From NCBI GenBank assembly GCA_945860415.1, contig CAMAQA010000003.1, forward strand, positions 8,982 through 72,981: a DNA stretch of 64,000 nucleotides, in the 5' to 3' direction. Within the stretch, counting starts at the first letter, position 1, and every line of letters begins with the position of its first letter. Positions 30,768 through 49,043 of this stretch are shown here, in pieces. The position numbers were made by a program, and so were the translations under genes. The DNA comes from Bacteriovorax stolpii. Its GTDB lineage: Bacteria; Bdellovibrionota; UBA1018. The notes below the pieces were generated by a model. It searched no databases and was not told where the DNA came from. It saw only the letters and a program-made list of their open reading frames with translations.

Positions 30768-32129
30768 GTGCCCCTACCGAAGCGCCCACCCTCTGACCGC
30801 TCCGCCGCCCTCGTTGCGGCGCTACGCACCGGGCCCAAGAGTACCCGCGATCTGATCGATCAGCTTCAGATCAGCCGAGCCACCCTGTCGCGCCTGGTAG
30901 GCACCCTCTCTGACCGAGTACTTCGGATCGGCGCTACACGCTCGACCCGCTACGCCCTGATCGAGCCAATTCCCGACCTGGGGCATCCGCTTCCGTACTT
31001 CAGGGTCACAGAAGAGGGGCAGTTGCTGCCCGCCGGAAAGCTGAGCTTGCTTGGCGGAACCCCCCGGCACTCGCAGTTTCACGTCGATCCGCTCGATGAA
31101 ATCCTGCAGGGTCTGCCCCCCGAAATGGCGGACATGACTCCGCAAGGATTTCTCGGTCGCCACTTCGCTCGCGAGCATGCCGAGAGCCTGAACATTCCCT
31201 CACGTCCTCAGGACTGGTCGAATGCCCACATCCTTCGGTTCGAAGCGCTCCGAGGAGAGAATCTTCCTGGAAACCTGATTCTGGGCGAGTCCAGCGCCGA
31301 ACGATTTCTGAACAGCGCCGTCGCACCGATCGCGGGCGAGCATGACTATCCTGCGGTCGCCCTGCAGGCACTCCGGGGACAGTCGGCGGGCTCGTCGGCA
31401 GGCGGAGAGCAGCCGAAGTTTTCGGTGCTGACGGCCCGCGGTCACGCCTTGGTCAAGTTTGCCGGACGAACCGCCCCCAATCAACCGCCCACACCCGCGC
31501 AAGCTCGATGGCGCGACCTGCTTCACGCCGAATTCGTTGCACTGAAGGTGATTCGAGAAGCGGGCCTGCCGGCAGCCGAGGCGCGCCTCATCGACACTCC
31601 GGAACTGACCTTTCTAGAAGTGCTGCGCTTTGATCGGTGCGGACCGAGAGGCCGCCGCCCCGTCCTCACCCTTGCAGCGGTCGACCTTCATCTCTTTGGC
31701 CAGATGGATACCTGGAGTCGGTCGGCTGCGCGTCTCGCACACTTGAAAATCCTCAGTGAGGCCGACCGACGCGCGATTCAGCTCATCGAGGCTTTCAGCA
31801 TCCTGATCGAGGATACCGACCGGCACTTTCACAATCTGGCTTTCTTTCGAGTCGGTCTTCCGGATGCTGAATTAGGAATTCCTGCTGGCACTCCGTCGCT
31901 GCAGCTTGCTCCGATCTTTGACAAGCTACCGATGATGCACGCACCCGTTGCTGAGCGCGTTTTTACTCCTGAAGAACGACGAACCCAGCTGACGAAAAAT
32001 GTACCGCCTCCACCCGAGCTCTGGGACGCCTGGGCGGCCGCAGAAAAGCTAGCCCAGCGCTACCGTGACGAAATCGCCGAAACTCAGGCGCTATCGCCCG
32101 CATTCCGCCGGGCGCTGAGCCAGCGCTAG
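30768..32129 (+). CDS. hipA: HipA-family serine/threonine kinase toxin with a fused N-terminal HTH region (GTG start)
   Basis: GEQPKFSV (HipA GxQxKF motif) and DTDRHFHNLAF (HipA catalytic D.H.N motif). The N-terminal 60 aa are HTH-like. Confidence 0.7.
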   Translation: MPLPKRPPSDRSAALVAALRTGPKSTRDLIDQLQISRATLSRLVGTLSDRVLRIGATRSTRYALIEPIPDLGHPLPYFRVTEEGQLLPAGKLSLLGGTPRHSQFHVDPLDEILQGLPPEMADMTPQGFLGRHFAREHAESLNIPSRPQDWSNAHILRFEALRGENLPGNLILGESSAERFLNSAVAPIAGEHDYPAVALQALRGQSAGSSAGGEQPKFSVLTARGHALVKFAGRTAPNQPPTPAQARWRDLLHAEFVALKVIREAGLPAAEARLIDTPELTFLEVLRFDRCGPRGRRPVLTLAAVDLHLFGQMDTWSRSAARLAHLKILSEADRRAIQLIEAFSILIEDTDRHFHNLAFFRVGLPDAELGIPAGTPSLQLAPIFDKLPMMHAPVAERVFTPEERRTQLTKNVPPPPELWDAWAAAEKLAQRYRDEIAETQALSPAFRRALSQR

Positions 32130-32237: not shown

Positions 32238-33113
32238 ATGAAAGGCATTCTCCTCGCAGGCGGCAGCGGAACGCGGCTCTATCCATTGACCCTGGCAGTC
32301 AGCAAGCAGCTGCTGCCGGTGTATGACAAGCCGACCATCTACTATCCCCTCTCGACTCTGATGCTGGCGGGCATCCGCGAAATTCTGGTCATCAGCACGC
32401 CTCGAGATCTGCCGATGATTCGCGCACTCCTGGGCGACGGATCAGATTACGGAATTCACCTCGAGTACGCCGAACAGGCCAAGCCCGAAGGCATTGCGCA
32501 GGCGTTTCATCTGGGCGCAGACTTTCTGGGCAACAGCCCCGCCTGCCTGATCCTGGGCGATAACCTCTTTTACGGCCACGACATGGTTCCGCTTCTTGGG
32601 CAGGCCGCGCGGCTCCAAACGGGGGCCTGTGTTTTTGGCTACCATGTCCACGACCCCGAACGTTACGGCGTGGTCGAGTTCGACTCGCACGGCAAAGCCC
32701 TTTCACTCGAAGAAAAGCCGAAAAAACCCAAGAGCAATTGGGCCGTCACGGGCCTGTACTTTTACGACGGCTCGGTGGTCGACCGTGCGCGGGCACTGAA
32801 GCCCTCCGCGCGCGGAGAGTACGAGATTACCGACCTGAACAAATCCTACCTCGCTGATGGTTCGCTCGATGTGAAGCTTCTGGGTCGCGGCGTGGCCTGG
32901 CTGGATACCGGCACTCCCGAATCGCTCATTTCGTCGTCACAGTTCGTTCAGACGATCGAACTGCGCCAGGGGCTCAAGATTGCCTGCCTCGAAGAAATTG
33001 CCTACGGCCAGGGATTCATCTCCCGCGACAAGCTTGCTGAACGCGCCGAGTTCCTCGGCAAGAGCGCCTACGGCCAGTACCTGAAATGGCTGCTGAATCC
33101 GCGAGCCTTGTAA
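32238..33113 (+). CDS. rfbA: Glucose-1-phosphate thymidylyltransferase
   Basis: [17 protein letters not shown]...[27 protein letters not shown], canonical RmlA. Confidence 0.95.
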
Positions 33114-33181: not shown

Positions 33182-34402
33182 ATGTTCCACTTTCGTCCGC
33201 GCCACGGACTGGAACTCTTTAGAAACCTTTCGAGCTTCAGCCCGATCGTCGGCATCTTCGGCCACCGTCAGGTGGGAAAAACCACCTTTGCCGAGCGTTT
33301 GGCGTCTTCGTATTGCACGTTCGACTCGAAGTCGACGCGCGATGCGGCGACGGCTGATCCCGCCCAATTCCTCGCTGCCCTCGGACGAAAACCTGCGGTG
33401 ATTGACGAGTGCCAGATGGTTCCTGACCTGTTTCCGGAGCTCAAAGACTACGTTCGAACCCATAAAAAACCGGGACAGATCATCCTCACCGGCTCGGTCC
33501 GCTTTTCGAGCCGTCGTGCCATTCGTGAATCCCTGACCGGGCGGATCGTGACACTCGAACTACTTCCGTTCTGCCTGACCGAGATTCTCGGGCACCCACG
33601 CTCCACCCTGGCACTAAAGCTGATCGGACTGCCTCGGCTCTCGGCCGCATGGGAGAATTCGCTCGGGCGAGGCGAACTTTCGGCCCGACAGCGCGCACTT
33701 CAAGACTACCTGGTGAGTGGCGGCCTCCCTGGTCTTTTCGCCATGCGAAACCCTCGGCTAAGAACCGAACGACTACGAGACCAGGTCGAGCTGATCCTGA
33801 GCCGTGACCTTCAACTCGTGCATCCGACCAGCCTGCCGTTCACCCAAATGATGGACCTGATGCGCGCCCTCAGCCGAGGCGAAAGCCACCCCGTCCATCC
33901 GACGCTCATTCGCAAGGAAACCCGGATTTCAGAAACCACCCAGAAAAAGCTACTGGGGGCGCTGGAGTCGGTTTTTCTGATCCGGCAGATTCCAGTGGAA
34001 GGCCAGCGAAAAGGAGTCAGCGTCTTCTTTGAAGACCAGCTCGAGCATCGCCACCTTCACGGTGAGGGCGTTTCGCCCGATCATGCCTTTGAAATGGCGG
34101 TCTGGCGAAACCTTCGTGCCACCTTCAACTATGAAACCGGCCTCGACTGGAGCTGTTTTCAGTTCATCGAAAAAGCGGGCCGAAGGCGCGTGCCATTCGC
34201 GTTCAGAACTCCTGGTGGCACGATCGCCATTCTACCTACTCTGGACAAAACGCCGAGCCGGCAGACTCTTGATTCAGCGCGGGAGTTTCTCCAGCGCTAC
34301 AATCAATCCCTGGCGCTCATCGTGACCCAGGGCCAACCGTCGACCGAGGTCCTTGACCCGAGAATTTTGCAAATTCCCGCCGAAAGGCTACTTTTCGAAT
34401 GA
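33182..34402 (+). CDS. AAA+ ATPase, AAA_14 + DUF4143 architecture (second copy, divergent paralog)
   Basis: Walker A GHRQVGKTT and Walker B VIDECQ. Inserted between rfbA and rfbD. Confidence 0.8.
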   Translation: MFHFRPRHGLELFRNLSSFSPIVGIFGHRQVGKTTFAERLASSYCTFDSKSTRDAATADPAQFLAALGRKPAVIDECQMVPDLFPELKDYVRTHKKPGQIILTGSVRFSSRRAIRESLTGRIVTLELLPFCLTEILGHPRSTLALKLIGLPRLSAAWENSLGRGELSARQRALQDYLVSGGLPGLFAMRNPRLRTERLRDQVELILSRDLQLVHPTSLPFTQMMDLMRALSRGESHPVHPTLIRKETRISETTQKKLLGALESVFLIRQIPVEGQRKGVSVFFEDQLEHRHLHGEGVSPDHAFEMAVWRNLRATFNYETGLDWSCFQFIEKAGRRRVPFAFRTPGGTIAILPTLDKTPSRQTLDSAREFLQRYNQSLALIVTQGQPSTEVLDPRILQIPAERLLFE

Positions 34403-34457
34403 CGACCCGCAAACTGCCCTTGCCCGCCGGCTGCGCGGAAACTACGGTGGATTCGAA

Positions 34458-35393
34458 ATGAATTCCGCCTTTGATCGCGTTCTCGTCACGGGAGTCACCG
34501 GCCAGGTGGGCCGAGCCCTCATCGAACAGCTCGGCGTTCACCGCTGCGTGGCTGCATCACGAGCCGTGCTTCCGCTCGACTTTCCGGAAACCATCCCGCA
34601 TCGGCTGGATTACTTTCGCCCTCGCGCCATCATCAACGCCGGGGCCTACACGGCCGTGGACCAGGCAGAATCGCCCGATGAGGCCATTTTCGTGAAAGCC
34701 ATCAACGAGGAGTCGCCCGCGAAGATGGGCCAGTGGTGCGCGAGGAACAGAGTACCTCTCATTCACTTCTCGACCGATTACGTCTTCGACGGCTCCGGAG
34801 ATGCCCCCCGGACCGAAGAGTCGCCCACGGGTCCGCTGAATGCTTACGGTTTGAGCAAACGTGCGGGTGAAGAGGCCATTCTGGCAAGCGGCTGCCGCGC
34901 GCTGATCTTTCGGACCTCGTGGGTCTATGATCATCAGGGAAAAAACTTCTTCCGGACGATGTTGAAGCTCGGAGCCGAGCGCGAGCAGCTGCGAGTGGTC
35001 GGAGACCAGATCGGCGCCCCGACCTTTGCCCCCCAGCTTGCCCACGCGGCGATCCTCGCACTCGAGAATGCTCTCGAGATCGAGGAGAAAACAGGTCAGT
35101 TTCCGACGGGCGTCTACCACCTCTGCCACTCTGGAGACACCTCGTGGCATGGCTTTGCCGAGGAGATCTTCGAAGGCGCTCGCGAACGCGGAATTCCGCT
35201 CCAGGTTGAGGAAGTGAAGCAGATCGCCACCGCGGAATACCCTACGCCAGCTCGACGCCCGCTCAACTCGCGGCTCGATTGCTCGAAAGCGGACCGGGTA
35301 CTCGGAGTGCGCCTCCCGGACTGGCATCTGGGCCTGGAGGAGTGCCTGGATTTGTGGCTCGAACACCACTCTCGAGGAGACTCGACCTCATGA
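34458..35393 (+). CDS. rfbD: dTDP-4-dehydrorhamnose reductase
   Basis: VLVTGVTGQVGRAL, STDYVFDG, and YG.SK..GE, canonical RmlD. Confidence 0.9.
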   Translation: MNSAFDRVLVTGVTGQVGRALIEQLGVHRCVAASRAVLPLDFPETIPHRLDYFRPRAIINAGAYTAVDQAESPDEAIFVKAINEESPAKMGQWCARNRVPLIHFSTDYVFDGSGDAPRTEESPTGPLNAYGLSKRAGEEAILASGCRALIFRTSWVYDHQGKNFFRTMLKLGAEREQLRVVGDQIGAPTFAPQLAHAAILALENALEIEEKTGQFPTGVYHLCHSGDTSWHGFAEEIFEGARERGIPLQVEEVKQIATAEYPTPARRPLNSRLDCSKADRVLGVRLPDWHLGLEECLDLWLEHHSRGDSTS

Positions 35394-35953
35394 GCACGAC
35401 ACCTTTTTCGGTCACCTCACTCGAGCTGGAAGGCCTCAAGCTGGTACAGCTGGCAGTCCATGGCGATTCACGCGGATTTTTCGTCGAGCGCTTCCAGCTG
35501 GAGCGCTTCAGGCAGAATGGGCTTCCGACGGAGTTCGCGCAGGACAATCATTCGCGCTCCGCTCCAGGCGTGCTCCGCGGGCTTCACTACCAAATGAATC
35601 CAGCCCAGGGAAAACTCGTGGGTGTGGTGCGCGGCGCGATACTCGATGTCGTCGTCGACATCCGCAAGGCGTCGGCCACCTTTGGCCGCCATATCGCGGT
35701 CGAGCTCTCCGACCTGAACGGCCGGATGCTCTGGGTTCCGGCCGGATTTGCTCATGGCTTTTGCGTGCTCGGCAGTGAACCCGCTGATGTCGTGTACAAG
35801 GTCGACGCGCTCTACAACCCCCAGTCCGAAGCCGGCATTCATCCGCTCGACCCGGATCTGGGAATCCAGTGGCCCGTGGCTTCGGCTCAGCTTTCAAAGC
35901 GCGACTCGACACTGCCCCGCTGGAGACAGTACTTCCAAGAGCCGTCCTTCTAA
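35390..35953 (+). CDS. rfbC: dTDP-4-dehydrorhamnose 3,5-epimerase
   Basis: D.RGFF.E.F...F..Q.N.S.S..GVLRGLHYQ ... P.G.AHGF, canonical RmlC. Its ATG overlaps the rfbD stop as ATGA. Confidence 0.92.
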   Translation: MSTTPFSVTSLELEGLKLVQLAVHGDSRGFFVERFQLERFRQNGLPTEFAQDNHSRSAPGVLRGLHYQMNPAQGKLVGVVRGAILDVVVDIRKASATFGRHIAVELSDLNGRMLWVPAGFAHGFCVLGSEPADVVYKVDALYNPQSEAGIHPLDPDLGIQWPVASAQLSKRDSTLPRWRQYFQEPSF

Positions 35954-37389
35954 CCCTCGTCCCTAAAAGACAGAGTCCACACCCCGGACATCGAAAGCAC
36001 ACTCACCGTCCAGCACTGCGTGGCAAACAAGGTGACACGATTTGCACTCGTGCCGAGATGCCACAAAAGGTCATTGGGGGTGCCGAGGTACACGACAACC
36101 AGAAACACCATATAACCCATGCCAGTGAGAAGGAGGACGCCACTCATCCGGGCATCTTCACGACTAGCTTTCCGACGCCAACCGAGCATCACCGCGAAGA
36201 AAGAGAACAAGAAGAGCACACCTGCATGGCTTGCAGACAAAAATAGCGACCGAAAAATCTCCACCACCGACTGTCCGTCGGTAGCCCTCGCGAGAACCCT
36301 GCTCAGGAATGACCAGTTCACGCCACCGAGATCATTTTCAACGCCAAGCCTCGAGCGAATCTCATACCAGACGATGACGCTCAGCAGACACACCCACCCG
36401 CCTCGATTCACCAAGGATCGGATCCCGATTCCGGCCACCTGACGAACCGGCAAGATCAGGAACGAAGCGCAAATGATGCAGGCCGCCGCTACTGCGCCTT
36501 CCAGTTTGCAATGCAGTGCAAGCGCCAGGAACACCAGCGACTGAACACCATGAGACGAGAACCGAGGCCCGGCCAGGGCACACAGCGCATGCAGCAGGCC
36601 CAGTAGGCCGAAATTCGCGGTCCACAAATCCATGTACCCATTCCAGGCCTTTTGACCCGGAATCATGAAAAGAATGCAAAATATTGCCAGCGAACCGATT
36701 GACGTGCGTCGGGGCAGCGCAACCCAGCCTGCCATCTGTGCAAGAAAAAAGATCACCAGGGAGCCCTTGGCCAGGCCGTCCGACCATGAAACGAATGCAG
36801 AGCCCCATGGAGAAAAGAATAAAGCTGAGCTCAGAATCGAATTCAGCCGGGGATAATCGGGATGAGAAAACGAAAACTCGGGCAGGCTCCAGCCTGCCGC
36901 AGATCCGGTGGTTCCTGAGAAAACGATCAGCTTGGAGTGCAAGAACCAGATCGAGCGGGAGTCCCAGCCCTCCAGGGGCGAGCGGAAGATCACCAGAATC
37001 AGCACAATCGATAACGAGATAATGGCAGCCCATTCTCGTCCAGGGCGATCCGTGCCGCGCTTGAATCTCAGTAACCCAAAACCTTTCGCCCAACCGAGGA
37101 CAGCAAACAAGCTCGCCAGTGGACGATGAACTGAAACTTCCGGGGCGATGAGAGCAAGCACGAGATACGCCAAAATACCCAGGCTCAGGTCGAGCGATTG
37201 CCTGAGAGCCCAGGCTTCATCACCGTGATCGGACATTCGATTCCTAAACAGGCGCCCGAAACCCACCAGAGTGAGCACCAGCAGAACAAAGGAGCTACCG
37301 GCAACGAGCAAGAACCACTCCCCCTTCACGATCGACTGGAACACACGGAGAAACCTCTTCACCAGCCAAATAGAATCGCAACGCCGCAT
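35950..37389 (-). CDS. Polytopic membrane protein (479 aa), possible O-antigen ligase/polymerase or GT-C glycosyltransferase
   Basis: At least 10 TM segments. The start codon is uncertain. Confidence 0.45.
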   Translation of the reverse strand: MRRCDSIWLVKRFLRVFQSIVKGEWFLLVAGSSFVLLVLTLVGFGRLFRNRMSDHGDEAWALRQSLDLSLGILAYLVLALIAPEVSVHRPLASLFAVLGWAKGFGLLRFKRGTDRPGREWAAIISLSIVLILVIFRSPLEGWDSRSIWFLHSKLIVFSGTTGSAAGWSLPEFSFSHPDYPRLNSILSSALFFSPWGSAFVSWSDGLAKGSLVIFFLAQMAGWVALPRRTSIGSLAIFCILFMIPGQKAWNGYMDLWTANFGLLGLLHALCALAGPRFSSHGVQSLVFLALALHCKLEGAVAAACIICASFLILPVRQVAGIGIRSLVNRGGWVCLLSVIVWYEIRSRLGVENDLGGVNWSFLSRVLARATDGQSVVEIFRSLFLSASHAGVLFLFSFFAVMLGWRRKASREDARMSGVLLLTGMGYMVFLVVVYLGTPNDLLWHLGTSANRVTLFATQCWTVSVLSMSGVWTLSFRDEG

Positions 37390-37690: not shown

Positions 37691-38446
37691 TTGGACATGC
37701 CCAAGCTAACCCTGGTCATCCCCGTTTACAATGAGTCGCGCCAGCTCGAGGAAGTCGTCCGTCTGCTGATGAACTCTCCGTGTCCGATCGAGCGCGAATG
37801 GATCTTCGTGGATGACGAATCCAAGGACGGAAGTCGAGACATCCTGCGGAGGCTCCGCGATGAGTTCGGCTTCACCCTACTCGAGCAGACCCCCAACCAG
37901 GGCAAGGGCGCTGCCGTCATCCGCGGCATTCGCGAATCCACCGGCGATTTCGTCGTGATCCAGGACGCCGACTTCGAGTACGACCCCAACGATATTCCAA
38001 GCCTGCTCCAGCCCCTGCTCGAGGGACGCGCGGACGTGGTCTACGGAAGCCGCTTCAAATCCAGTCATCAAGTCCGGCGCACGTACCACTATTTCGTGAA
38101 CCGCTTCCTGACTATCCTGAGCAACCTGATGTCGGGCATCTACCTGACCGACATGGAGACCTGCTACAAGCTCTTCCGCGCAGAAATCCTGAAGCCGATG
38201 AAGCTCCAATCGAAGCGCTTCGGAATCGAAGTCGAGTTCACGGCGTACGTTGCGAAGACCCGAGCCCGCGTCTATGAGCTTCCGATTTCGTACTTCCCGC
38301 GTACTCGGCTTCAGGGAAAAAAGATCAACTGGAAGGACGGCGTGGCGGCGCTCGTGCACCTGGTTCGCTTCAACTGGATGACAGGAATTGACGATGCGTT
38401 TGATCTCCGGAAGCTGCCAACGAAGTACTTTCCCAGCGACCGCTAA
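37691..38446 (+). CDS. GT2 glycosyltransferase, Dpm1-like polyprenyl-phosphate sugar synthase (soluble form)
   Basis: [18 protein letters not shown], and [10 protein letters not shown] (the DAD motif). Confidence 0.8.
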
Positions 38447-40317
38447 ACCTGCTGCTCGACGTAGAGCGACACTTCGACCAAACGATCCATGAGCTCACTC
38501 GGGCTCGCGCCCGGAAAGTTCTTCTGCACCAGCTCTTTTGAAAACAGCCGCAGGATGTATCGCAGTCGGAGGGCCTTCGTTTGAGATGCGAAGATGAAAT
38601 CTCGATGACCGCTGTTGATCACGATCAGCTCACGCGCCTCATCATAGCGCGATCTCCAGAGCTGTCCGGGTGAGCGTTCGAACGTGTATCCGGGCAGTCC
38701 TCTCGACGAACCAGAACGACTGGCTTCTCCGCGGGGGGCGACCTGCTCCACCACCGTTACCATGGCCTCGGCACCGACCTGGACCTCGCCCTGGCGAATC
38801 ACCACGCTGAGACGGCACATTCCCGGTTCTCCGGGCGCGCGAAAGCGAACCACCGCCGGAGAAAGCACCTCGAACTCGCCGCCTCCTTCAACGAGGCTCC
38901 ACTCATACTCGAGCTGATCGGCATGCTTTCGTTTTCGATCATATCCCACGGCTCGAAACTCTCGGCCCTGGCCGACCCCGAGGATACTGGACCCTGGAAG
39001 AACTCGGGCCGAGTGGAGCGGACCTGGAAACTCAAAGAAGGCTCTCTGCGACTCTTCGCCCACTTCGGACCCCGCGCCCGATGTCGCCGATGGGGCATGG
39101 GCGTCGGATAGGATCGTCGTCTCCTGCGCTCCTTCCTGAGGCGACGGACCTTCTGCAGTCGACCTTCCGGGCAGCTCGCCCTTCGATGAAACGACGGCGA
39201 ACCAGTCGTAATCCTCGGCAGGAAGCATCTGCACCGCATCTCGGAAAGCCTTCTGAATTGCCTCAAGGGTGGCCTTCGAGGACTCTTCTTCTTCAGCGAT
39301 CTTCATCTGCTCCAGAGACTGGATCAAAGTCGGCTCGAGACTGGAAATCGCCGATATCGCATCCTCAAAGGCCTGGTCGTGAATCACGCCAAGACGGCTT
39401 GCGGGCGAGAGCTGTAGGTCGGGGCAATCCACCCACCCTTGGAAATAGCCCGAACTCCATGGGACTCGCTGAAAGGCCTCAAGCTGAGAAATCTGCTCGA
39501 GCACCCGCGTTCCTCGCCGATACAACGCGATACCAGCACTCTTCTGAGGATCGACCAGATAAAGCTCGACAGAAATTTTCTGGCGAGAAAGCTCGGGATT
39601 CGTGGGCAGCACCAGCGGAGCCCCCTCGAAGCGTCGCGCCTCGACGACCCGGTCCATTCGCGACAGTCGATCGAGGATCCGAATCTTCACGCCCGTCGAA
39701 AGGATGCGATTGCGAAGCTCAGCCGCAAGATACGCCTCCAGGCGCTCTCCACTCAGCTGGCGAAGTCCGGGAAGCAGCGGTCCAATCATCAGCTCGGTTC
39801 CCTGGCGACCGACCAGCTGGCGGGTGGGCTGCACCTCGAACTTGTTCTTCGATCGATGCATGGTCATCTGATAGGTCTTTCCATCAGAGCCTGCGCACTT
39901 CATCGTCAGGGTTTCGCCCACAGTCCAGAAGCTCAGCAACCCGATGCCAAACTCGCCCTGAAGCGCCGAGGTATTCTGTTCGAGCTTGATTCGTCGCTTG
40001 AGCGAGTCGCAGATATGGGTACCCACGTAGTGGAAGTCGGGCTTTCCCTCGGAGTCGAGCGGTACCCCTCTACCGTTGTCGACGATGCGCAGGTACGATT
40101 CTCCGGCCTCGCGACCCCGAATGACCTGAATCTCCGTGGCTCCGGCATCAATGCTGTTTTCAACGAACTCGGCCACCGCCTTCAGCGGATTCGACTGAGA
40201 GAGCGCGATGATCGTGATGGCATTCCACTGGTCACCGATTTTCATCGACCGGCGACGGCCATCACCTCTGGAGCGCGCTGAAAGCTTCTTGGTGGAACCC
40301 GCTCGCTGTCGCTTCAT
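38443..40317 (-). CDS. GHKL-superfamily ATPase of the MutL/MORC type (HATPase_c_3-like) with a ~400 aa uncharacterised C-terminal region
   Basis: [19 protein letters not shown]...[11 protein letters not shown] is the N-box/G1 of MutL/MORC-type Bergerat folds. [10 protein letters not shown] is a G2-like motif. No MutL DNA_mis_repair or MutL_C motifs were recognised. The start overlaps the purB stop as ATGA. An alternative start lies at 40245. Confidence 0.55.
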
Positions 40318-41633
40318 TTCCTCGCCCCCGCCCGACGAAAAATACGCCCTGCGTTTCGAGTTGCGTAGGAGACACTCAGGAATCGCCGCAGCTCTCGCGC
40401 CTTCAGGTACCTGACGATATGCGAATCTGCTTCGAGTGCCGCCAGAAAGGCATTCGAGTCCGTTCCGGCCCCCAGAGCTGCTGACTGAACCCACCGATAA
40501 GCCTCGTCTCTGGCCGCCCCCCGCTTCACCAGTTCAAGCAGGATCGTGCCGGAATACACCTTCAGTCCTGCCGACTCCAGATTCGCGCGAATACGATCAC
40601 GGTCAATTTCGAGGGATGCAACGACGCCGGCGAGTCGTGACACGGCATAATGCGCAAGCATCAGCGCATCGGCGAGGGCCACGCGCTCGACGGCGGAGTG
40701 ACTGATATCGCGCTCATGCCAGAGCGCCACGCTCTCGAGTCCTGCAACGGCGTAGCCTCGGAGCATGCGGGCACATCCGGTGATATTCTCGCTCGAGATC
40801 GGATTGCGCTTGTGAGGCATCGCACTCGAACCCTTCTGGGTCTTCGAGAAGCCTTCCTTGAGCTCTCCGACTTCGGATCGCTGGAGATGCCGAATTTCCG
40901 TACCGATTCGCTCCATTCCACCACCCAGAACGGCAAGCGCCGAATAAAGTTCAGCGTGGCGATCACGCGGAATGACCTGGGTCGACACCGGCTCGACTCC
41001 GAGCCCAAGGCGCTTCATCACGGATTTTTCGAAGGCCGGATCCAGATGGGCATAGACCCCGACCGCTCCCGAGAGCTTGCCAAAGGCCAGCCCCTCAAAG
41101 GCCCGGGCGAGGCGCTCGCGGTTGCGGCGCATTTCTTCGAGAAAGCCGAGAAACTTCAGTCCAAAGATGGTCGGCTCCGCGTGCATTCCGTGGGTGCGGC
41201 CGATGCAGGGAAGATTGGCGGTTTCACGAGCGGACTTTTCCAGGGCGACCATCAGTCGATCGAGCTCCGACAACACGAGCGCCCCAGCGTCGCGGAGCTG
41301 AAGAGCAAGCCCAGTATCGAGCACATCCGAAGAGGTCAGCCCGAAATGAACCCAACGCCCTTCCTTGCCGAGCCCGGCGACCACTGCAGTCACGAACGCG
41401 ATGACATCGTGATGGACCTTCGCCTCTTCCTCACGAACACGGGCGGGATCCACGCCTCCGGCGGACTCGATTCGTCGGAGTCCTGCAATAAGCTTCTTGC
41501 CCTCGGTCGTGGAGATCCAGCCACGAGCCGTCATCTCCTCGCACGCCGCGCGCTCGACCTTCAAGCAATAGAGCCAGCGCGAACGCTCGGTGAACAGCGC
41601 TGCCATCTCAGGTCTGCTGTAACGATCGATCAT
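40314..41633 (-). CDS. purB: Adenylosuccinate lyase
   Basis: RYSRPEM...[11 protein letters not shown], and the [11 protein letters not shown] signature of the fumarate-lyase family, PurB subtype. Confidence 0.92.
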
Positions 41634-42103
41634 CGGTGTCCTCCGGAGGATGCGGATGATTTACGTCCTCCGAGGAGCCGAGAAAAGAGCCAAAGAGGTC
41701 CGATGAGCAGGTGCTCGAGATTTTTCAGGAATGCCGGCCTGTTGCGCTCGTAACGGGCATGGCCGACGCCCTGGATGATCCAACCGACGACGAAAGCAGC
41801 CACCAGCGTTGAAAGCGGGAGTTCTCGGGCCCCGAGGTAGATCAGGAATGAGAGACCCGAAAACATGACCCCGAGCTGGCGCCCCCACACCACGTAATAG
41901 GCCGCTGCCGCTAACCAGAGGAGGAATCCTCCATCCATGGGGTCGCTGATGGAAAGGAACGAAAAGAACCCCAGGATGGCCAGCATGATCATGGGCACGC
42001 CCACGTAGTGCAGGCGCTCGTTCATCGGATGGCGATGGTACGAGTCATATTCGGTGAACTGCGCCTCGAGTCGTGAGCCTGGAGCCGGTTGGAGCTTCAT
42101 CAT
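41630..42103 (-). CDS. DUF962 (Mpo1-like) family membrane protein
   Basis: F.EY..YHRHP.N...H..GVP region followed by 3-4 TM helices. Confidence 0.55.
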   Translation of the reverse strand: MMKLQPAPGSRLEAQFTEYDSYHRHPMNERLHYVGVPMIMLAILGFFSFLSISDPMDGGFLLWLAAAAYYVVWGRQLGVMFSGLSFLIYLGARELPLSTLVAAFVVGWIIQGVGHARYERNRPAFLKNLEHLLIGPLWLFSRLLGGRKSSASSGGHR

Positions 42104-43092
42104 CTGTCCTCAAACACGATCGCGCGCCACTCGTTTCGCGCAAGAACCCTGGAGATCCTACTTGGAAGCAATGCCGAGTACGCCGCTCGCACCGGCTCCA
42201 CGTCGGCCTCGATCAGGCCGGAGAGGATCATCACGCCCCCACTCCTCACGCGACCGCAAAGAGACTGCGAGAACTCGAGGAGCACGGGCTTGAGAATGTT
42301 GGCGAAGACGACGGAATAGCCGCCGACGGGCGCCTCGCCCTCCAATATCGAGAGATCGGTTTCGTACCGGATTCGCTCATAAACCTCGTTCAGCCGCGCA
42401 TTCTCGCGCGCATTGTCGATCGCGAGGCGATCGATCTCGACAGCGTGCACCTGCCTGGCTCCGCGAAGTGCAGCACCAATCGCCAGAATTCCCGAGCCGC
42501 TGCCGAAGTCGAGCACCGACTCTGGTTCCAGCCCCCCGGCGAGGGATTCCGAAAACGCCTGAAGGCAGAGCTGGGTCGTTTCGTGTGTTCCGGTGCCGAA
42601 TCCGGCACCCGGATTCACGACCAGAAGATGCCTGCCTGGAGCTCCCTTTTGGGCTTCCCAAGGCGGGACGATCTTCCAATCCGGAGGAACCTCGACCCCG
42701 CGGAAGTTGCGCTTCCATTCGGCGTCCCAGTCCTGGTTCGGCTGCTCAAAAATGCGAACCACGGTGCAGCCTGAGATTCCCTCGAGCCGCTCCTGCGCCT
42801 GGCGCGCGTCGGCTTCGCTTGGAAAGTACAGCTGCGGATTTTCCTGCGACTGCGCTCCGACCCAATCTCGGTTGCTCGGGGCTTCGCCCGAATCCACGAG
42901 CCATGACTCCGTCTCGAGACCGGCTTCCGCAGCCTCGTCACAGAGCATGGTTCCTTCATGGACTCCCTGGAGACTGCAGTCTGCCAGTTCCTGCCAGAGC
43001 CAGGCGAAGAAATCCTCGCGTCCGAGCCGCTCGCCCGATGGAAGCCGAACCTCAGCGTTCAGCGCCAGTTCCGCGATCCAGAAGGACGACAT
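42100..43092 (-). CDS. prmA: Ribosomal protein L11 methyltransferase
   Basis: GAGFGTGTHETTQLCL and LDFGSGSGILAIGA, canonical PrmA. Confidence 0.85.
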   Translation of the reverse strand: MSSFWIAELALNAEVRLPSGERLGREDFFAWLWQELADCSLQGVHEGTMLCDEAAEAGLETESWLVDSGEAPSNRDWVGAQSQENPQLYFPSEADARQAQERLEGISGCTVVRIFEQPNQDWDAEWKRNFRGVEVPPDWKIVPPWEAQKGAPGRHLLVVNPGAGFGTGTHETTQLCLQAFSESLAGGLEPESVLDFGSGSGILAIGAALRGARQVHAVEIDRLAIDNARENARLNEVYERIRYETDLSILEGEAPVGGYSVVFANILKPVLLEFSQSLCGRVRSGGVMILSGLIEADVEPVRAAYSALLPSRISRVLARNEWRAIVFEDR

Positions 43093-43097
43093 GGATC

Positions 43098-46000
43098 TTA
43101 TTCAACTGGGGGCTGAGAATGGCCGCCTTCTCCGCCGCCGCCGCCACCGTTGCCACCACCACCGCCGCCATTACCGCCATTGCTCGGTCCGTCGTCGCGC
43201 TGGGGGCGAGGTCCGCCACCGCCACCACCGCCCTGGGCATGGCGTCCGCCGCCACCGCCGCCGCCACCGCCGCCGCCGCCGCGGTTGCGATCTCGTCCGC
43301 GATCTCGGTCGCGTCCGCCGCGACGTCCCCCACGGCGATCGCGATCGCGTCCACCGCGACCACCACCGCCGCCGCCTCCACCATTCTGGTGGCGCGGGCC
43401 GGGTCCGCGGTTGCCATTCGCTTCATTACGGCTCATGCCGGCAATCGCCGCATCCTGCGCAGCCTGGGCGCGCAGGTAAGCGAGGCGGTCCTCTTCATCC
43501 ATCTCCTCGTCCCAGCCTGGCTGCTGGCGAGGCCCACCCTGCGGCTGCTGGAATCCGGTCGTCGCACTCTGAAGGTGCGTCGGCACATCCGCCCGGTTGC
43601 CGATCATATCGGGATCCATTGGAGTCTGAATCTGCTGACTCTGAATCTGAGTCTGAGTCTGAATCTGGGGCTGGGGCTGACGATCCTGATCTCGGCCGTG
43701 CTGGCGATCGTCGTCACGATTCTGATGACGTTCACCACGGTCGCCACGATCACCGCGATTGCGATTCCGGTCGCGATTGCGATCGCGGCCATCGCGGTCG
43801 CGCTGATTCCGCTGACCGCCGCCTTCAGCCTGCTGGATCGTCGGCTCGTTGGCCATTTCTTCGACCATGGCTGGCATGTCGGCAGCCTGGATCGCGCGCG
43901 ACTGACGCTGGGCTTCGAGACGGGCGCGAACGGCTTCACGTTCCTTCTCGCGCTCCTTCTCCATGCGTTCGCGTTCCTTCTGACGCTCGTTGCGGCGATC
44001 GCGTTCGCGATCACGCTCACGGTCGCGACCCACGCGCTCACGCGCGGAACGTCCCGGAGTGCTTTCCGCGATGACTTCGAACTGCTCCATGTGGAAGTCG
44101 CCCATCGCCTGCAGGTAGATCGGCTTGCGGAAACGGCGCTCGAGCTGGTCGAGAGTTTCACGCTCGTCGATGGCGAGTAGGTCGATCACTTCCGAGTGCG
44201 CCTGAACGAGGATCTTCGTGACATCGCGGTCGATGCCGTCACGTTCGACATCACGGAGCACTTCATAGGCCACCGTCTGGCGGCTCTTGACGAAGCCCTT
44301 GCCTTCGCAATGCGAACACGCTTCGCAGAGCGCGCGAACCATGGTGTCGCGCGTGCGCTTGCGGGTCATTTCAATGAGGCCGAGTTCGGAGATCTTCTGG
44401 ATCGTCGGACGAGCGCGGTCCTTGCGGAGCGCCTCTTCCAGCGCGCGATACACGCGCTGCTTGTTCTCTTCCTTCTCCATGTCGATCAGGTCGAGGACGA
44501 TGATGCCGCCACAGTTGCGAAGGCGCAGCTGGTAGGCAATCTCCTGGACGGCTTCGAGGTTCGTCTTGAGGATCGTGTCCTCGAGGTTCTTCTTTCCGAC
44601 GAATCGGCCGGTGTTGACGTCGATCGCGACGAGGGCTTCCGCCTGGTCGATCACGAGATAGCCGCCCGACTTGAGCCACACCTTGCGCTCCAGAGCCCGC
44701 GAGAGCTCGGAGGAAATGTTGTAGGCGTCAAAGATCGGCACATCGCCCTGGTAGAGCTCGGCCTTCTGGCGCAGCGACGGCATGAAGTGGCTGACGAAGC
44801 GCTGGATGTCGTTGAAGTGGTAGCGCGAGTCGACCACGATCTTGTCGATCTCCTCGTTGACCCAGTCACGGATCGAACGCAGGACAGCGTTCAGGTCTTC
44901 GTACACCAGAGCCGGTGCGGAAACCGTGCGAGCCTTCTCCTGGATTTCTCCCCAGAGACGGGTCAGGTACTCGATGTCCTGCTTGACGCGTTTTTCGGAC
45001 TGCTTGCCGCTGGCCGTACGGACGATGAAGCCCAGGGCCTTCGGACGATTGCGCTCGACGAAGTCGCGAAGACGGCGGCGCTCGTCGTCGCGCTCAATGC
45101 GGCGCGAGACACCGACGTGATCGATCGTCGGCATGCAGACCAGGTGACGACCCGGCAGGCTGATATGGCAGGTCAGACGCGCGCCCTTGGTCGCGATCGG
45201 GTCCTTGGCGACCTGAACGAGCACTTCTTGGCCTTCCTTCAGAAGGTCCTGAATGTTGACCTGAGCACGAGACTGCGAGCGCGGGGCGGCAGCCTTCGGC
45301 TTGATCCGGCGGTTCTTGTCGCGATTCTCTCGGAATTCCGGACGTGAGCCCTGAGCATTCGTACCGGCGGAAACCGGAATCGGGCCGGAACGGCCAGAAC
45401 CGGTGGACTGAGGACGGCTGGACTCTTCGTCCCCAGCATCCTGGACGCCCAGCTCTGAGCGATCGGAATCCACATGCCCCTCATCGGCGAGGTGCTCGGA
45501 GAATGCCTCATGGTCTTCCGAGTCGTGTCCCTGAGCCGAAACTCCAGATCCAGCCTGCTGCTCTTCACCTTCACGACCACGACGACGATTACGTCCGCCA
45601 CGACGACCACGACGACGTTTGCGACGACTCTCTTCCGACTCGCCTGCCGGTCCGGCCTGCTTCTCGCCACCTTGTTCGCCGCCCTGCTCGCCACCTTCGG
45701 CGGGAGCAGCAGCAGCCGGGGCAACGGTGCCTTCCGGAGCATCTCCTCCGGATTCGCCGTTGCCACCCTCGGCGCCCATTCCGACCGGACCCTCGTCATC
45801 AGAGTCCTCGTCGAGCTCCTCATCTTCCTCGATGGTAAAATCGTCTTCTTCGTCCTGTGCCTCGGCACCCTCCGAGCCTTCTTCTCCAGACTCAGATGGT
45901 TCTGCTTTGGGCTGGGCAGCCTGACCGGCCTGCACCGGCACGATCACGGCTTCACTCTGTTCGCCCCCTGAGGATTCCTGAGATCCGCGCGAGTTGGGTC

Positions 46001-46274
46001 GACGACCTTCTTCGGTAGCGGCCTCTTCTTCTTCCCAGACTTCGGAGTGAACGAAAACGTCATCCACGTAGAGGAACGCGGCCTTCTCAAGACCGATATC
46101 CACGAACGCAGCCTGCATTCCTGGAAGGACACGCGTCACGCGTCCCTTGTAGATGTTTCCGACAATTCCTTTTCCCGAGGCCCTTTCGATCAGGAGCTCC
46201 TGGATTTCTCCATTCTCCAACAGGGCAATGCGCGTTTCAGGAAGGGATGCATTGATAATCAGCTCAGTCGACAT
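43098..46274 (-). CDS. rne: Ribonuclease E/G family endoribonuclease with a long low-complexity C-terminal scaffold region
   Basis: The N-terminal S1 and DNase-I-like catalytic domain (GNIYKGRVTRVLPGMQAAFVDIG, GGIIVLDLIDM) are conserved. The C-terminal ~550 aa are RD/RE/RGG/poly-Gly/QPQ repeats. Confidence 0.9.
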   Translation of the reverse strand: MSTELIINASLPETRIALLENGEIQELLIERASGKGIVGNIYKGRVTRVLPGMQAAFVDIGLEKAAFLYVDDVFVHSEVWEEEEAATEEGRRPNSRGSQESSGGEQSEAVIVPVQAGQAAQPKAEPSESGEEGSEGAEAQDEEDDFTIEEDEELDEDSDDEGPVGMGAEGGNGESGGDAPEGTVAPAAAAPAEGGEQGGEQGGEKQAGPAGESEESRRKRRRGRRGGRNRRRGREGEEQQAGSGVSAQGHDSEDHEAFSEHLADEGHVDSDRSELGVQDAGDEESSRPQSTGSGRSGPIPVSAGTNAQGSRPEFRENRDKNRRIKPKAAAPRSQSRAQVNIQDLLKEGQEVLVQVAKDPIATKGARLTCHISLPGRHLVCMPTIDHVGVSRRIERDDERRRLRDFVERNRPKALGFIVRTASGKQSEKRVKQDIEYLTRLWGEIQEKARTVSAPALVYEDLNAVLRSIRDWVNEEIDKIVVDSRYHFNDIQRFVSHFMPSLRQKAELYQGDVPIFDAYNISSELSRALERKVWLKSGGYLVIDQAEALVAIDVNTGRFVGKKNLEDTILKTNLEAVQEIAYQLRLRNCGGIIVLDLIDMEKEENKQRVYRALEEALRKDRARPTIQKISELGLIEMTRKRTRDTMVRALCEACSHCEGKGFVKSRQTVAYEVLRDVERDGIDRDVTKILVQAHSEVIDLLAIDERETLDQLERRFRKPIYLQAMGDFHMEQFEVIAESTPGRSARERVGRDRERDRERDRRNERQKERERMEKEREKEREAVRARLEAQRQSRAIQAADMPAMVEEMANEPTIQQAEGGGQRNQRDRDGRDRNRDRNRNRGDRGDRGERHQNRDDDRQHGRDQDRQPQPQIQTQTQIQSQQIQTPMDPDMIGNRADVPTHLQSATTGFQQPQGGPRQQPGWDEEMDEEDRLAYLRAQAAQDAAIAGMSRNEANGNRGPGPRHQNGGGGGGGGRGGRDRDRRGGRRGGRDRDRGRDRNRGGGGGGGGGGGGRHAQGGGGGGGPRPQRDDGPSNGGNGGGGGGNGGGGGGEGGHSQPPVE
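43130..43830. repeat. Coding low-complexity DNA repeats inside rne (GCC/GGC runs, CTGAATCTGAGTCTG repeats, GCGATCGCG repeats)
   Basis: Visible short tandem repeats in the DNA, encoding the Gly-rich, QPQ/QTQ, and RDR tracts of the RNase E tail. Confidence 0.8.
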
Positions 46275-46948: not shown

Positions 46949-47761
46949 ATGAAACGACGACCAAAGCCTTCCGCCAAGAGTCTTGAATCCCAGCTCCATG
47001 AGCTGGTGCGCCAGCTCATGGACCACACGGGGCCCGCCGCAGCAAAGCTGCCCGCTCGCCGATCACCGACGCGTTCCAGCGCCAGCGCAACCGCCCTCGC
47101 CCGGCGAATCGATCACACCATTTTGAAGCCCGAATCCACCCTGTCTCAGGTGCTGGCCGCCTGCAGCGAGGCCCGAGAACACGAATTCGCTTCCGTATGC
47201 GTGCACAGCCACTGGCTGCCTGAGGTGGTTCGAGCCCTCAAAGGAAGCCGCACCCTTCCGATCGCCGTGGTGGGATTCCCGCACGGCTCGATGCTCCCTC
47301 AGGCCAAGGCTTTCGAAACGCGCCTCGCCGCAAAAGCTGGAGCGCGCGAAATTGACATGGTCGTGAATCTCGGCCGGCTCAAGTCTCGTGACTGGAAGGC
47401 AGTGTTCGAAGACATCCGTGGAGTGGTGAAGGCCGCAGGAAAAATTCCTGTGAAAGTGATCCTCGAAACCGGACTCCTCACGAATGAGGAAAAGGTCGCG
47501 ACGGCGGTGCTCTGCGAGCTCGCAGGAGCGGCGTTCGTGAAAACCTCGACTGGTTTTGCAACCGGAGGAGCTACGGTGGAGGACATCCACCTCCTTCGCA
47601 AAGTCTTGAATCCGAGGGTTCGACTAAAGGCTTCGGGAGGAATACGCACACGCGAGATCGCCGAGGCCCTGATTTCTGCCGGAGCAGACCGCCTCGGAGC
47701 CTCCAGCAGCATCGCCATCGTCGAAGGAAGCAGCCCGGCACAAGCCCCGGGATCGTACTGA
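46949..47761 (+). CDS. deoC: Deoxyribose-phosphate aldolase (with an N-terminal extension of about 40 aa)
   Basis: [14 protein letters not shown], Schiff-base lysine region FVKTSTGF, and ASGGIRT. Confidence 0.85.
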
Positions 47762-47771
47762 AGGAGCATCC

Positions 47772-49043
47772 ATGCAGGCGCAAATGAATCGAGTGATCTG
47801 GATCGTGCTGGACGGCGTGGGTGCCGGTGAATTGCCGGATGCCGCAAAGTACGGCGACACCGGATCCAACAGTCTCGGAAATCTCGGCTCGCATTTTCCG
47901 AGGAAGACCGGAAGACCGCTGAATTTGCCGAACCTGCGCAAGCTCGGGCTCGGAAACCTCACGTCGATTGATGGGGTCCCCCCTTGCAGACCGGGCGAGG
48001 GCGCAGGAGCCTTCGCGCGCGCCAGCGAAAAATCGCTCGGAAAGGACACCACCTCCGGACATTGGGAAATGGCCGGCCTCGTCGTGTCGAAGGCGTTTGC
48101 CACCTTTCCGAACGGATTCTCGCAGGAAGTCATCGACCGCTGGTGTCGTGAGAACAACCTGCCTGGAGTGCTCGGCAACAAGACCGCCAGCGGCACCGAG
48201 ATCATCGACGAACTGGGCGCCGAGCACCTTGCCACTGGAAAGCCCATTCTCTACACCAGTGCCGACAGCGTATGGCAGGTTGCCGCCCATGAGGAAGTCT
48301 TCGGCCTCGAACGGCTTTACGCAATCTGCAAGTCCGCACGGAAGATCTGCGACGAGCTCCAGATCAGCCGAGTGATTGCGCGTCCGTTCATTGGCAACCC
48401 CCAGGAGGGAACGCCGTTCAAGCGCACCTACAACCGCAAAGACTACGCCCAGCTTCCGGATCGCCCGACGCTGCTCGATCTGCTGCAGAACCAGGAGGTC
48501 CGAACGATCGGCATCGGAAAGATTTCGAACATTTTTGCAGGCCAGGGAATTCCGGAGAATATTGACACGGCTGGAAACACCGATGGCATTCGCGTGCTGC
48601 TCGAGCAGATCGAAAAGCGACGCGAGCCTGGAACCCTCCTCTTCTGCAACCTCATCGACTTCGACATGCTCTACGGACACCGGCGAGATGTGCAGGGTTA
48701 TGGCGGCGCACTCGAAGAGTTTGACGCTGCACTTCCGAAAATTCTCGAATCCATGGACGAGCGCGATCTCCTGATTCTCGCCTCGGATCACGGCAATGAT
48801 CCGACCTATCCAGGAACGGACCATACGCGCGAGTACATTCCGATCCTTGCCTACTCGCCTCTTTTTCACGGTGAAAAATCCGAAAGAAAAGGCCTGGTCG
48901 ATCTTGGCATTCGCTCCTGCTTCGGAGATGTCGGAGCCACGATCTATGAGGCGCTGACCGGACAGTCGATTCCGGCAGACTCCAGACTCGAGGGCATGTC
49001 CTTCCTGGGCCAACTCTCCGGCAATTCCGCGGGTGGCGCGTGA
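47772..49043 (+). CDS. deoB: Phosphopentomutase
   Basis: [23 protein letters not shown] and HGNDPT, canonical DeoB. Confidence 0.9.

Follow-up and report, generated by a model that had tools for sequence, protein, structure and literature searches.

Does the ATPase gene that overlaps purB in Bacteriovorax stolpii serve purine synthesis and RNA metabolism, or does it belong to a system of its own? The gene lies in a stretch of 64,000 nucleotides (contig CAMAQA010000003.1 of assembly GCA_945860415.1, positions 8,982 to 72,981), which was analysed as a whole and is referred to below as the window. Its product carries the ATP-binding domain of the GHKL (Bergerat-fold) superfamily. To judge by its sequence, the gene belongs to a bacterial family of stand-alone GHKL ATPases that is large, strongly conserved and uncharacterised. 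It is located as follows:

38443..40317, minus strand: complete gene of the GHKL-family ATPase (open reading frame list and translation; TAG stop at 38443-38445; full-length homologues with 46-52% identity)

The open reading frame (40317..38443) codes for 624 amino acids, in agreement with the protein of about 625 residues that a model had proposed without database searches (the sequence-only reading). The maximal frame extends further upstream, to a GTG at 40494 (40494..38443). Homologue N-termini have in common a basic stretch of approximately 20 residues before the conserved GKLRIGD (alignment A1). Since this stretch is equivalent to the basic tail of the window protein, the ATG at 40317 is favoured as the start. 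The Lys/Arg-rich N-terminal tail had been expected if an upstream start were used; it exists already with the ATG at 40317.

Distribution of the family

According to the sequence-only reading, the ATPase was an orphan. This description does not hold. In a word-indexed search, 4,902 of the 8,000 candidates scored matched the window protein with an expectation value (E) of 1e-3 or lower, the best match apart from the protein itself reaching 4.7e-195; the protein thus belongs to a large family that crosses phyla. The 120 matches listed are full-length (~600-640 amino acids) and share 47-52% identity with the window protein. Exhaustive search of representatives clustered at 50% identity retrieved 1,537 clusters at E<=1e-3, 273 of them at E<=1e-30, and full-length relatives in this set reach down to ~27% identity.

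One genome per species was also scanned. At least 575 relatives were found in approximately 11 phyla, among them Beta- and Gammaproteobacteria, Acidobacteriota, Planctomycetota, Verrucomicrobiota, Omnitrophota, Spirochaetota, Nitrospirota, Bacteroidota/Rhodothermales, Desulfobacterota and Bdellovibrionota. The distribution across phyla is patchy. Relatives are absent from the 2.9 million viral contigs of IMG/VR, and a phage origin of the family was rejected on this ground. Between phyla, members share about 58-68% identity, a very high degree of conservation for a gene so patchily distributed; the best relatives of a given member usually belong to the same phylum. The window protein itself stands apart: its nearest relative shares 52% identity with it. 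Since host purB is equally isolated (its best match is likewise only 53% identical), the host lineage is poorly sampled.

Named copies are all annotated as "ATP-binding protein" or "hypothetical". No description of the family was found in the literature on HATPase_c_3, GHKL, Hsp90-like proteins or bacterial MORCs in defence. Characterisation of one member would annotate thousands of "ATP-binding protein" entries.

Domain organization and catalytic motifs

A structural model of the protein was computed with AlphaFold2 from the 43-sequence alignment A1 (mean predicted local distance difference test, pLDDT, 74.8). Conservation and charge were tallied over 43 diverse family sequences. The following parts can be distinguished, all encoded on the minus strand:

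40252..40317, minus strand: Lys/Arg-rich disordered N-terminal tail, amino acids 1-22 (pLDDT <50)
39763..40251, minus strand: Bergerat-fold ATP-binding domain, amino acids 23-185 (Pfam HATPase_c_3, conservation in A1)
39379..39762, minus strand: predicted alpha/beta middle (transducer-like) domain, amino acids 186-313 (AlphaFold2 pLDDT 85-96; Foldseek)
39214..39378, minus strand: long conserved acidic helix, amino acids 314-368 (AlphaFold2 helices 315-325 and 328-364; conserved columns A341...W372)
39028..39213, minus strand: acidic disordered linker, amino acids 369-430 (pLDDT 30-41; variable in length and sequence in A1)
38743..39027, minus strand: predicted Ig-like beta-sandwich domain, amino acids 431-525 (AlphaFold2 pLDDT 90-98)
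38446..38682, minus strand: small basic C-terminal domain, amino acids 546-624 (three short strands and two helices; conservation in A1 and A6)

Segments of the model itself have slightly different limits: disordered tail 1-19, Bergerat domain 20-185, middle domain 190-310, long helix 315-364, disordered linker 369-421, beta-sandwich 436-523 (pLDDT >90) and the strands and helices of the C-terminal domain 555-623. Pfam HATPase_c_3 matches amino acids 46-157 with 36.9 bits against a cut-off of 25 (E 4.5e-9). All four motifs expected of the GHKL superfamily, I (ExxxNxxD), II (DxGxG), III (GxxGxG) and IV (GT), are present. In A1, each of their residues is either invariant or conserved to 90% or more: E50, N54 and D57 in motif I, D80, G82 and G84 in motif II (IVDNGRGV, amino acids 78-85), Q120-G121-E-F-G124-I-G126 in motif III (GEFGIGL, amino acids 121-127) and G173-T174 in motif IV. 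The Bergerat-fold N-terminus, which had been recognised from motifs at amino acids 50-61, 78-85 and 121-127, is thus confirmed. I27, G28, W31 and N32 of the N-terminal strap RIGDxWNAI are invariant or nearly so, and the same is true for R267-G-T-R271 and P305-x-x-R308-x-G310 in the middle domain. Because the four motifs, the strap and the middle-domain residues are preserved to this degree, the protein looks catalytically competent. R308 is a candidate for the catalytic "finger" of the middle domain, with R267 and R271 as alternatives. The GHKL subgroup with a transducer (topoisomerase ATPase, MutL, Hsp90, MORC) is defined by a second alpha/beta domain behind the ATP-binding domain that donates a conserved basic residue to the active site; the fold of such a domain is present in the model, and R267, R271 and R308 are candidates for the donated residue.

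Charge is unevenly distributed along the protein. The N-terminal tail carries a net charge of +8 in the window protein (family mean +3.8) and the middle domain has a mean of +1.8. The long helix, which ends in a conserved LPxEEYDWF, has a net charge of -4 and the linker a mean of -6, giving about -10 for both together. The C-terminal ~80 residues are again basic (+3.8) and show 76% mean column identity. Invariant residues of the C-terminal domain are W554-R-S556, N568, H571-R-D573, Y587, R590, K594-E595 and N600-F-x-G603. The domain is a candidate dimerisation and/or nucleic-acid-binding module.

The Ig-like fold was confirmed by a separate AlphaFold2 model of the last 204 residues. Its Foldseek matches comprise the C-terminal Ig-like domain of lambda gpV, phi29 capsid protein (prohead entries), LigA, ICAM and titin (E 7e-6 to 1e-4). 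A protein of 2,478 amino acids (P0256) matches the Ig-like segment 22 times.

Beyond approximately residue 185, no Pfam or PDB family was matched by sequence. Searches of amino acids 186-624 included Pfam at E<=10 on three sub-regions and PDB profile searches of the middle and C-terminal domains; for the C-terminal part (421-624) there were zero Pfam or PDB matches even at E<=10. Comparison of the whole protein with NCBIfam, PADLOC and PHROGs returned nothing beyond the GHKL motifs. The C-terminal two-thirds, in which the sequence-only reading had recognised no MutL, HtpG or histidine-kinase motifs, are therefore undescribed at the level of sequence. We found no description of the domain combination seen here, an Hsp90-like pair of N-terminal and middle (N+M) domains joined to an Ig-like domain and a novel basic C-terminal domain.

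Relatives by fold and by sequence

The best 50 Foldseek matches of the model in PDB are all chains of the Hsp90 family (Hsp90, Hsc82, TRAP1, HtpG, Grp94; E ~1e-12). The alignments comprise 350-420 columns and cover the GHKL and middle domains (amino acids 20-370). In a library of viral structures, matches were Hsp90, topoisomerase II ATPase subunits and RIIA, all of them proteins with GHKL and transducer domains. It had been claimed that HtpG and transducer motifs are missing. This is right for the sequence and wrong for the predicted fold, in which amino acids 20-370 resemble Hsp90 N+M.

These matches raise the question whether the family represents specialised Hsp90-type chaperones, that is, divergent HtpG paralogues that remodel protein clients and use the Ig-like domain as a client or co-factor site. 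A weak match to the NCBIfam "HSP90 family protein" model also points in this direction, and so do the very high conservation across phyla and the frequent housekeeping neighbourhoods. In a comparison by hhalign with the middle domain of yeast Hsp82, the segment "LYRxGTRV...GIVDAPFLxLT" was placed on "LYVRRVFI...GVVDSEDLPLN"; in full, the register sets "NxVGLYRxGTRV...PWxSGYLQGIVDAPFLxLT" on "NNIKLYVRRVFI...PEWLSFVKGVVDSEDLPLN", the catalytic-loop region of Hsp90. The alignment is weak and not significant (E 0.03, probability 1.6%), so that it serves as a lead only. Homology to Hsp90 at the sequence level was accordingly not upheld, and the profile of the middle domain retrieved neither Hsp90 nor any other sequence match from PDB. 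Membership in Hsp90/HtpG was rejected as well: with NF010683 the score is 22.7 bits, far from the cut-off of 455, and both a Pfam HSP90 match and the C-terminal dimerisation domain are missing. Hsp90 is an acidic protein, whereas tail, middle and C-terminal domains of the window protein are basic. Patchy distribution and the SNF2 and Schlafen neighbours of some loci (see below) do not suit a chaperone either. We consider a chaperone of this kind quite unlikely.

By sequence, the closest matches in PDB and NCBIfam are N-termini of MutL and MLH1, which could indicate a MutL paralogue active in DNA repair or recombination. These matches, however, span only about 45 residues and motifs I-II. TIGR00585/PRK00095 reaches 40.2 bits against a cut-off of 180, on amino acids 43-87 only, and neither the DNA_mis_repair domain (PF01119) nor MutL_C (PF08676) was found; membership in MutL was rejected. 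Hhalign against a MutL N-terminal sequence yielded E 0.02 and a probability of ~2%, again only a lead. MutL structures are not among the best 50 fold matches, and mutS is not among the families that recur in immediate neighbours of the homologues. A repair paralogue is thus very improbable.

Linkage to purB and RNase E

The gene is the last member of a string whose other components, together with the convergent neighbour downstream, are:

40314..41633, minus strand: purB, adenylosuccinate lyase (Pfam Lyase_1, E 1e-53, and ADSL_C)
41630-42103, minus strand: gene for an Mpo1-like protein, formerly DUF962 (open reading frame list, Pfam)
42100-43092, minus strand: prmA (open reading frame list, Pfam)
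43098-46274, minus strand: rne, RNase E/G (open reading frame list, Pfam)
37691..38446, plus strand: gene for a family-2 glycosyltransferase, convergent (Pfam; TAA at 38444-38446)

The tightly packed order rne-prmA-DUF962-purB upstream of the gene had been described correctly, as confirmed by Pfam and the open reading frame list. In the whole five-gene string, junctions are only 4-nucleotide overlaps or one 5-nucleotide gap. The reported overlap between the ATPase start and the purB stop is also real: the plus-strand letters "tcat" at positions 40314-40317 give ATGA on the minus strand, where the ATG of the ATPase gene shares bases with the TGA of purB. At the other end, the TAG of the ATPase gene (38443-38445) overlaps the TAA of the glycosyltransferase gene. 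With both overlaps, intergenic DNA is absent at either end of the gene. The promoter/terminator scan of the window found no terminator between the two convergent genes, and Rfam, tRNA and promoter/terminator scans of the window gave nothing relevant. GC content and codon usage of the gene are host-like. It is hence an established resident of the host genome; a recent horizontal insertion was rejected for the same reason.

This organization is the basis of the proposal that a MutL/MORC-type ATPase has a functional tie to purB and to the RNase E operon, such as a part in purine-nucleotide sensing or RNA metabolism. The ATGA overlap and the gap-free string do imply co-transcription, possibly with translational coupling in this organism, and host-like codon usage fits. 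We wondered if the linkage also occurs elsewhere. We fetched 88 homologue loci, 87 of which come from other genomes (~82 distinct places), the remaining one (L008) being from the same organism. When the rne, prmA, Mpo1 and purB products of the window were compared with these loci by tblastn, L008 alone matched, with 100% identity. Conversely, tblastn with the ATPase detected no relative in 80 purB loci, each taken with 6 kb of flanking sequence; this set does not contain sister genomes of the host (best match to host purB 53% identity). Conservation of the linkage in relatives, on which the sequence-only reading had staked its proposal, is thus not observed, and the functional link to purine or RNA metabolism that was derived from it is not supported. 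Overlaps of the same length, 4 nucleotides, also join prmA to the Mpo1-like gene and the latter to purB and reflect the general packing of the string. Moreover, the MORC motif is absent and MutL models stay far below cut-off. Coupling to purB and RNase E is the least likely of all readings and is largely refuted.

The place behind purB is therefore a lineage-specific outcome of compact gene packing. The ATGA overlap speaks for co-expression in this organism and not for shared function, since overlaps of this kind are the packing style of the string. An orphan ATPase tied to purine synthesis and RNase E being unsupported, no new metabolic-regulatory link follows from the locus.

Neighbourhoods of homologues

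All-against-all clustering of 638 flanking open reading frames and Pfam and PADLOC tallies of 141 immediate neighbours revealed no conserved partner, but merely an SNF2 link in a minority of loci. On either side, only about one neighbour in two shares the strand of the ATPase gene, and intergenic gaps usually lie between them. Examples include an ATP-synthase operon with a PIN gene, MacB transporters with a transposase, AbiEi/AbiEii, arsenic resistance with SNF2 and Schlafen-type genes, a sigma factor with NikR and GreA, and a DUF433/DUF5615 pair with an ISL3 transposase.

In five loci, four from Pirellulales-type Planctomycetota and one from the Bdellovibrionota lineage FG-1, the ATPase gene adjoins a ZorD-like SNF2 helicase of ~890-1,000 amino acids, usually transcribed divergently. 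Another SNF2 gene, of the DUF3670 type, follows the ATPase gene in a Usitatibacter locus:

L019:209-2884, minus strand: SNF2 helicase, Pirellulales-type (PADLOC)
L024:4696-7374, minus strand: SNF2 helicase, Pirellulales-type (PADLOC)
L057:5141-7849, minus strand: SNF2 helicase, Pirellulales-type (PADLOC)
L064:537-3209, minus strand: SNF2 helicase, Pirellulales-type (PADLOC)
L005:3372-6362, minus strand: SNF2 helicase, Bdellovibrionota FG-1 (PADLOC)
L030:3500-6202, plus strand: DUF3670-type SNF2, Usitatibacter

The best PADLOC match of the ZorD-like helicases is ZorD (E down to 1e-119), with further matches to DpdE and DrmD models. No ZorA, ZorB or ZorC was seen near these genes, and no such SNF2 helicase occurs in the 679 kb of purB control loci. 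A Schlafen-AlbA_2 protein adjoins the ATPase gene in L005 and L078, the L005 copy possessing HATPase_c_4 and a winged helix. ATPases of the AAA_14/DUF4143 kind lie near homologues in L003, L005, L054 and L058 and one lies in the purB control loci; they are weakly related to an AAA_14-type ATPase of the window, located 4 kb from the GHKL gene. These associations cover less than 10% of loci, can in part be accounted for by shared ancestry and are suggestive only.

A different arrangement is found in a distant subfamily (L169 and L170; ~36% identity to the window protein), where an upstream partner ends 5 nucleotides before the ATPase start:

L169:2-289: upstream partner
L170:105-881: upstream partner, complete copy (258 amino acids, faint HTH_3 match)

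The C-terminal ~93 residues of the partner are 55% identical between both loci. It is absent from loci of the main family. Partnered versions of the GHKL family thus exist.

Some of these neighbours would suit a paraMORC-kind defence against mobile elements, performed by the single protein or with assistance of SNF2, in which the Ig-like domain would sense foreign DNA or a phage protein and clamping or compaction of DNA would block replication. Besides AbiEi/AbiEii, PIN toxin, DUF433/DUF5615, ISL3 transposase, ZorD-like SNF2 and Schlafen-AlbA_2, a DDE transposase is found next to homologues, and the patchy occurrence over ~11 phyla agrees with such a role. GHKL modules in defence have precedent in paraMORCs (PMC2292703) and in the GHKL-Shedu protein VcSduA (PMC12137116). 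On the other hand, the window protein has no significant match among the 5,027 models of PADLOC-DB 2.0, the only similarities being at the level of motif I, to TmtA (15.7 bits, amino acids 41-88) and MzaB (12 bits); nor did ten distant family members give anything significant against PADLOC. A recognisable effector domain is lacking, conservation is far above that usual for defence genes, viral contigs contain no relatives, and the window gene itself is placed between purB and cell-envelope genes. Most neighbours have no connection with defence. The defence context which the sequence-only reading had considered is accordingly borne out for a minority of loci (SNF2/ZorD-like, Schlafen-AlbA_2, AbiE, toxin-antitoxin, insertion sequences) and not for the metabolic majority, and is weakly supported overall. 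We regard a dedicated defence system as conceivable but doubtful.

Proposed mechanism and role

The interpretation we prefer, tentatively and with somewhat less than even confidence, is that the protein is an autonomous ATP-gated homodimeric clamp, probably on nucleic acid, with DNA transactions or genetic conflict as its likeliest roles. Characterised GHKL proteins with a transducer domain provide the analogy. The homodimer would be held together by the C-terminal part. Binding of ATP would close the N-terminal domains by exchange of straps, and a middle-domain arginine (R308, or R267/R271) would complete the active site for hydrolysis. The basic tail and the basic C-terminal domain may engage nucleic acid, while the surface of the Ig-like domain could serve in recognition or as an adaptor. 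Until activation, the basic surfaces might be masked by the acidic helix and linker, in the manner of an autoinhibitory mimic. The gene would act as an autonomous accessory gene, in some lineages together with an SNF2 helicase.

A role in DNA transactions or genetic conflict agrees with the precedent set by paraMORCs, with the SNF2 and Schlafen genes beside some homologues and with the patchy distribution. The SNF2 genes, although found in a minority of loci, echo the SNF2 link of MORC/paraMORC operons (PMC2292703). An Hsp90-like chaperone role is kept alive by very high conservation and the many housekeeping neighbourhoods.

Several observations weigh against the clamp on nucleic acid. Charge is the sole argument for nucleic-acid binding, AlphaFold2 confidence for the C-terminal domain is only moderate (pLDDT 53-83), and the protein shows no motif of a nuclease or of another effector. 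Most neighbours of homologues are ordinary metabolic genes. SNF2 adjoins the ATPase gene in only 6 of the ~82 distinct homologue places; because four of them belong to related Pirellulales, the association amounts to only 2-3 independent events. Finally, genes of conflict or defence are seldom conserved to the extent seen here, with ~60% identity across phyla and best relatives grouped by phylum; a housekeeping-like client would be in keeping with such conservation.

MORC and SMCHD1 are eukaryotic GHKL chromatin ATPases. A bolder version of the clamp, which we think unlikely, is that the family consists of unrecognised, bacteria-wide Hsp90/MORC-like DNA-clamping ATPases with an Ig-like sensor, analogous to these two proteins, which alone or with SNF2 would silence or exclude foreign DNA; its high conservation would then stem from a universal nucleic-acid target. 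Study of the family could show whether bacteria possess a MORC/SMCHD1-like nucleic-acid clamp beyond the known paraMORCs linked to restriction-modification (R-M).

Other genes of the window

The RNase E gene (43098-46274, minus strand) codes for 1,058 amino acids, of which the RNase_E_G catalytic domain occupies only 372-641. Its N-terminus consists of an S1-like stretch followed by ~290 amino acids of acidic, Gly-/Arg-rich low-complexity sequence. The C-terminal ~320 amino acids are made of Arg/Asp/Gly repeats with long poly-Gly runs. The rne 5' untranslated region family was not found by Rfam at this gene. Divergently from rne, a nucleoside-catabolism-like cluster is located at 46949-50371 (plus strand), coding for a DeoC-family aldolase, a Metalloenzyme-superfamily protein (phosphopentomutase-like) and a pyrimidine-nucleoside phosphorylase. 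Purine or nucleoside genes are thus present on both sides of the RNase E string.

Beyond the glycosyltransferase gene lies a dTDP-rhamnose cluster:

32238-33113: NTP_transferase
34353-35393: RmlD
35279-35953: RmlC-like protein

The AAA_14-type ATPase gene mentioned above (33182-34402, plus strand) is located within this cluster. Between the rhamnose genes and the glycosyltransferase gene, 35950-37389 (minus strand) codes for a multi-pass membrane protein of 479 amino acids with no Pfam match, possibly of the O-antigen polymerase/ligase type (assigned by eye only). A HipA_C-domain gene (HipA-like kinase/toxin, 453 amino acids) occupies 30768-32129 (plus strand); its N-terminal segment is HVO_A0261-like.

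Comparison with known systems

Hsp90, HtpG and TRAP1 share with the GHKL protein the succession of a Bergerat domain and an alpha/beta middle domain, and they are its best structural matches. The protein may also possess an equivalent of the Hsp90 catalytic-loop region "LYVRRVFI...GVVDSEDLPLNLSR", although this likeness is weak. Unlike Hsp90, it has no Hsp90 C-terminal domain and instead contains the long helix, the acidic linker, the Ig-like domain and the novel basic C-terminal domain. Its N-terminal half is basic where that of Hsp90 is acidic, and its family is patchy in distribution whereas Hsp90 is near-universal.

MutL, MLH1 and PMS2 are the closest sequence matches for motifs I-II and follow the same general clamp logic. 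In contrast to them, the protein lacks the MutL transducer and the C-terminal endonuclease/dimerisation domain.

MORCs are recognised by the signature GhXhhpXXRhl in the S5-fold domain (Iyer, Abhiman & Aravind 2008, PMC2292703). Search with a regular expression found it in none of 43 family sequences. The string that comes nearest to it is shifted by one residue and contains a G that A1 does not conserve, so membership in MORC was rejected. The assignment "MutL/MORC-type" made in the sequence-only reading therefore cannot be retained: MutL models fall far short of cut-off, too, and the nearest folds are Hsp90 N+M.

Similarity to MORC and paraMORC1-5 lies in architecture. In both cases, a HATPase_c_3-type domain is followed by a transducer-like domain and a family-specific C-terminal extension, occurrence is sporadic over distant phyla, SNF2 neighbours are found in some loci and some members stand alone. 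In MORC/paraMORC operons, a link to SNF2 was reported, and ~70% of MORC loci contain superfamily-II helicases and R-M components (PMC2292703); in the GHKL family, helicase linkage is seen in ~7% of loci. A MORC-type neighbourhood is not apparent either, generic methyltransferase Pfam families being matched by only 2 of the 141 genes directly beside homologues and restriction-nuclease families not recurring among these genes. C-termini of paraMORC3, 4 and 5 contain a restriction-endonuclease (RE) fold nuclease (E-D-ExK), TIR and a domain with an HxH motif, respectively; paraMORC2 has an ExxxH signature at the end of the S5 domain, and part of paraMORC3 is stand-alone (PMC2292703). Inspection of A1 and A6 by eye and Pfam searches detected no RE fold, TIR, conserved HxH or ExK on a strand, and a conserved ExxxH is not visible by eye in the A1 consensus. 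The Ig-like domain is undescribed for any paraMORC.

The defence proteins Tiamat TmtA, MzaB and GHKL-Shedu VcSduA resemble the protein in having an N-terminal GHKL ATPase, which is thought to gate a C-terminal module (PMC12137116). The protein differs from them by the absence of DUF4263 or another nuclease, and similarity is confined to the level of motif I. Taken together, we conclude that it is a GHKL ATPase with a transducer-like domain that forms a family of its own. Its fold comes nearest to Hsp90 N+M, and its overall logic to that of the paraMORC radiation.

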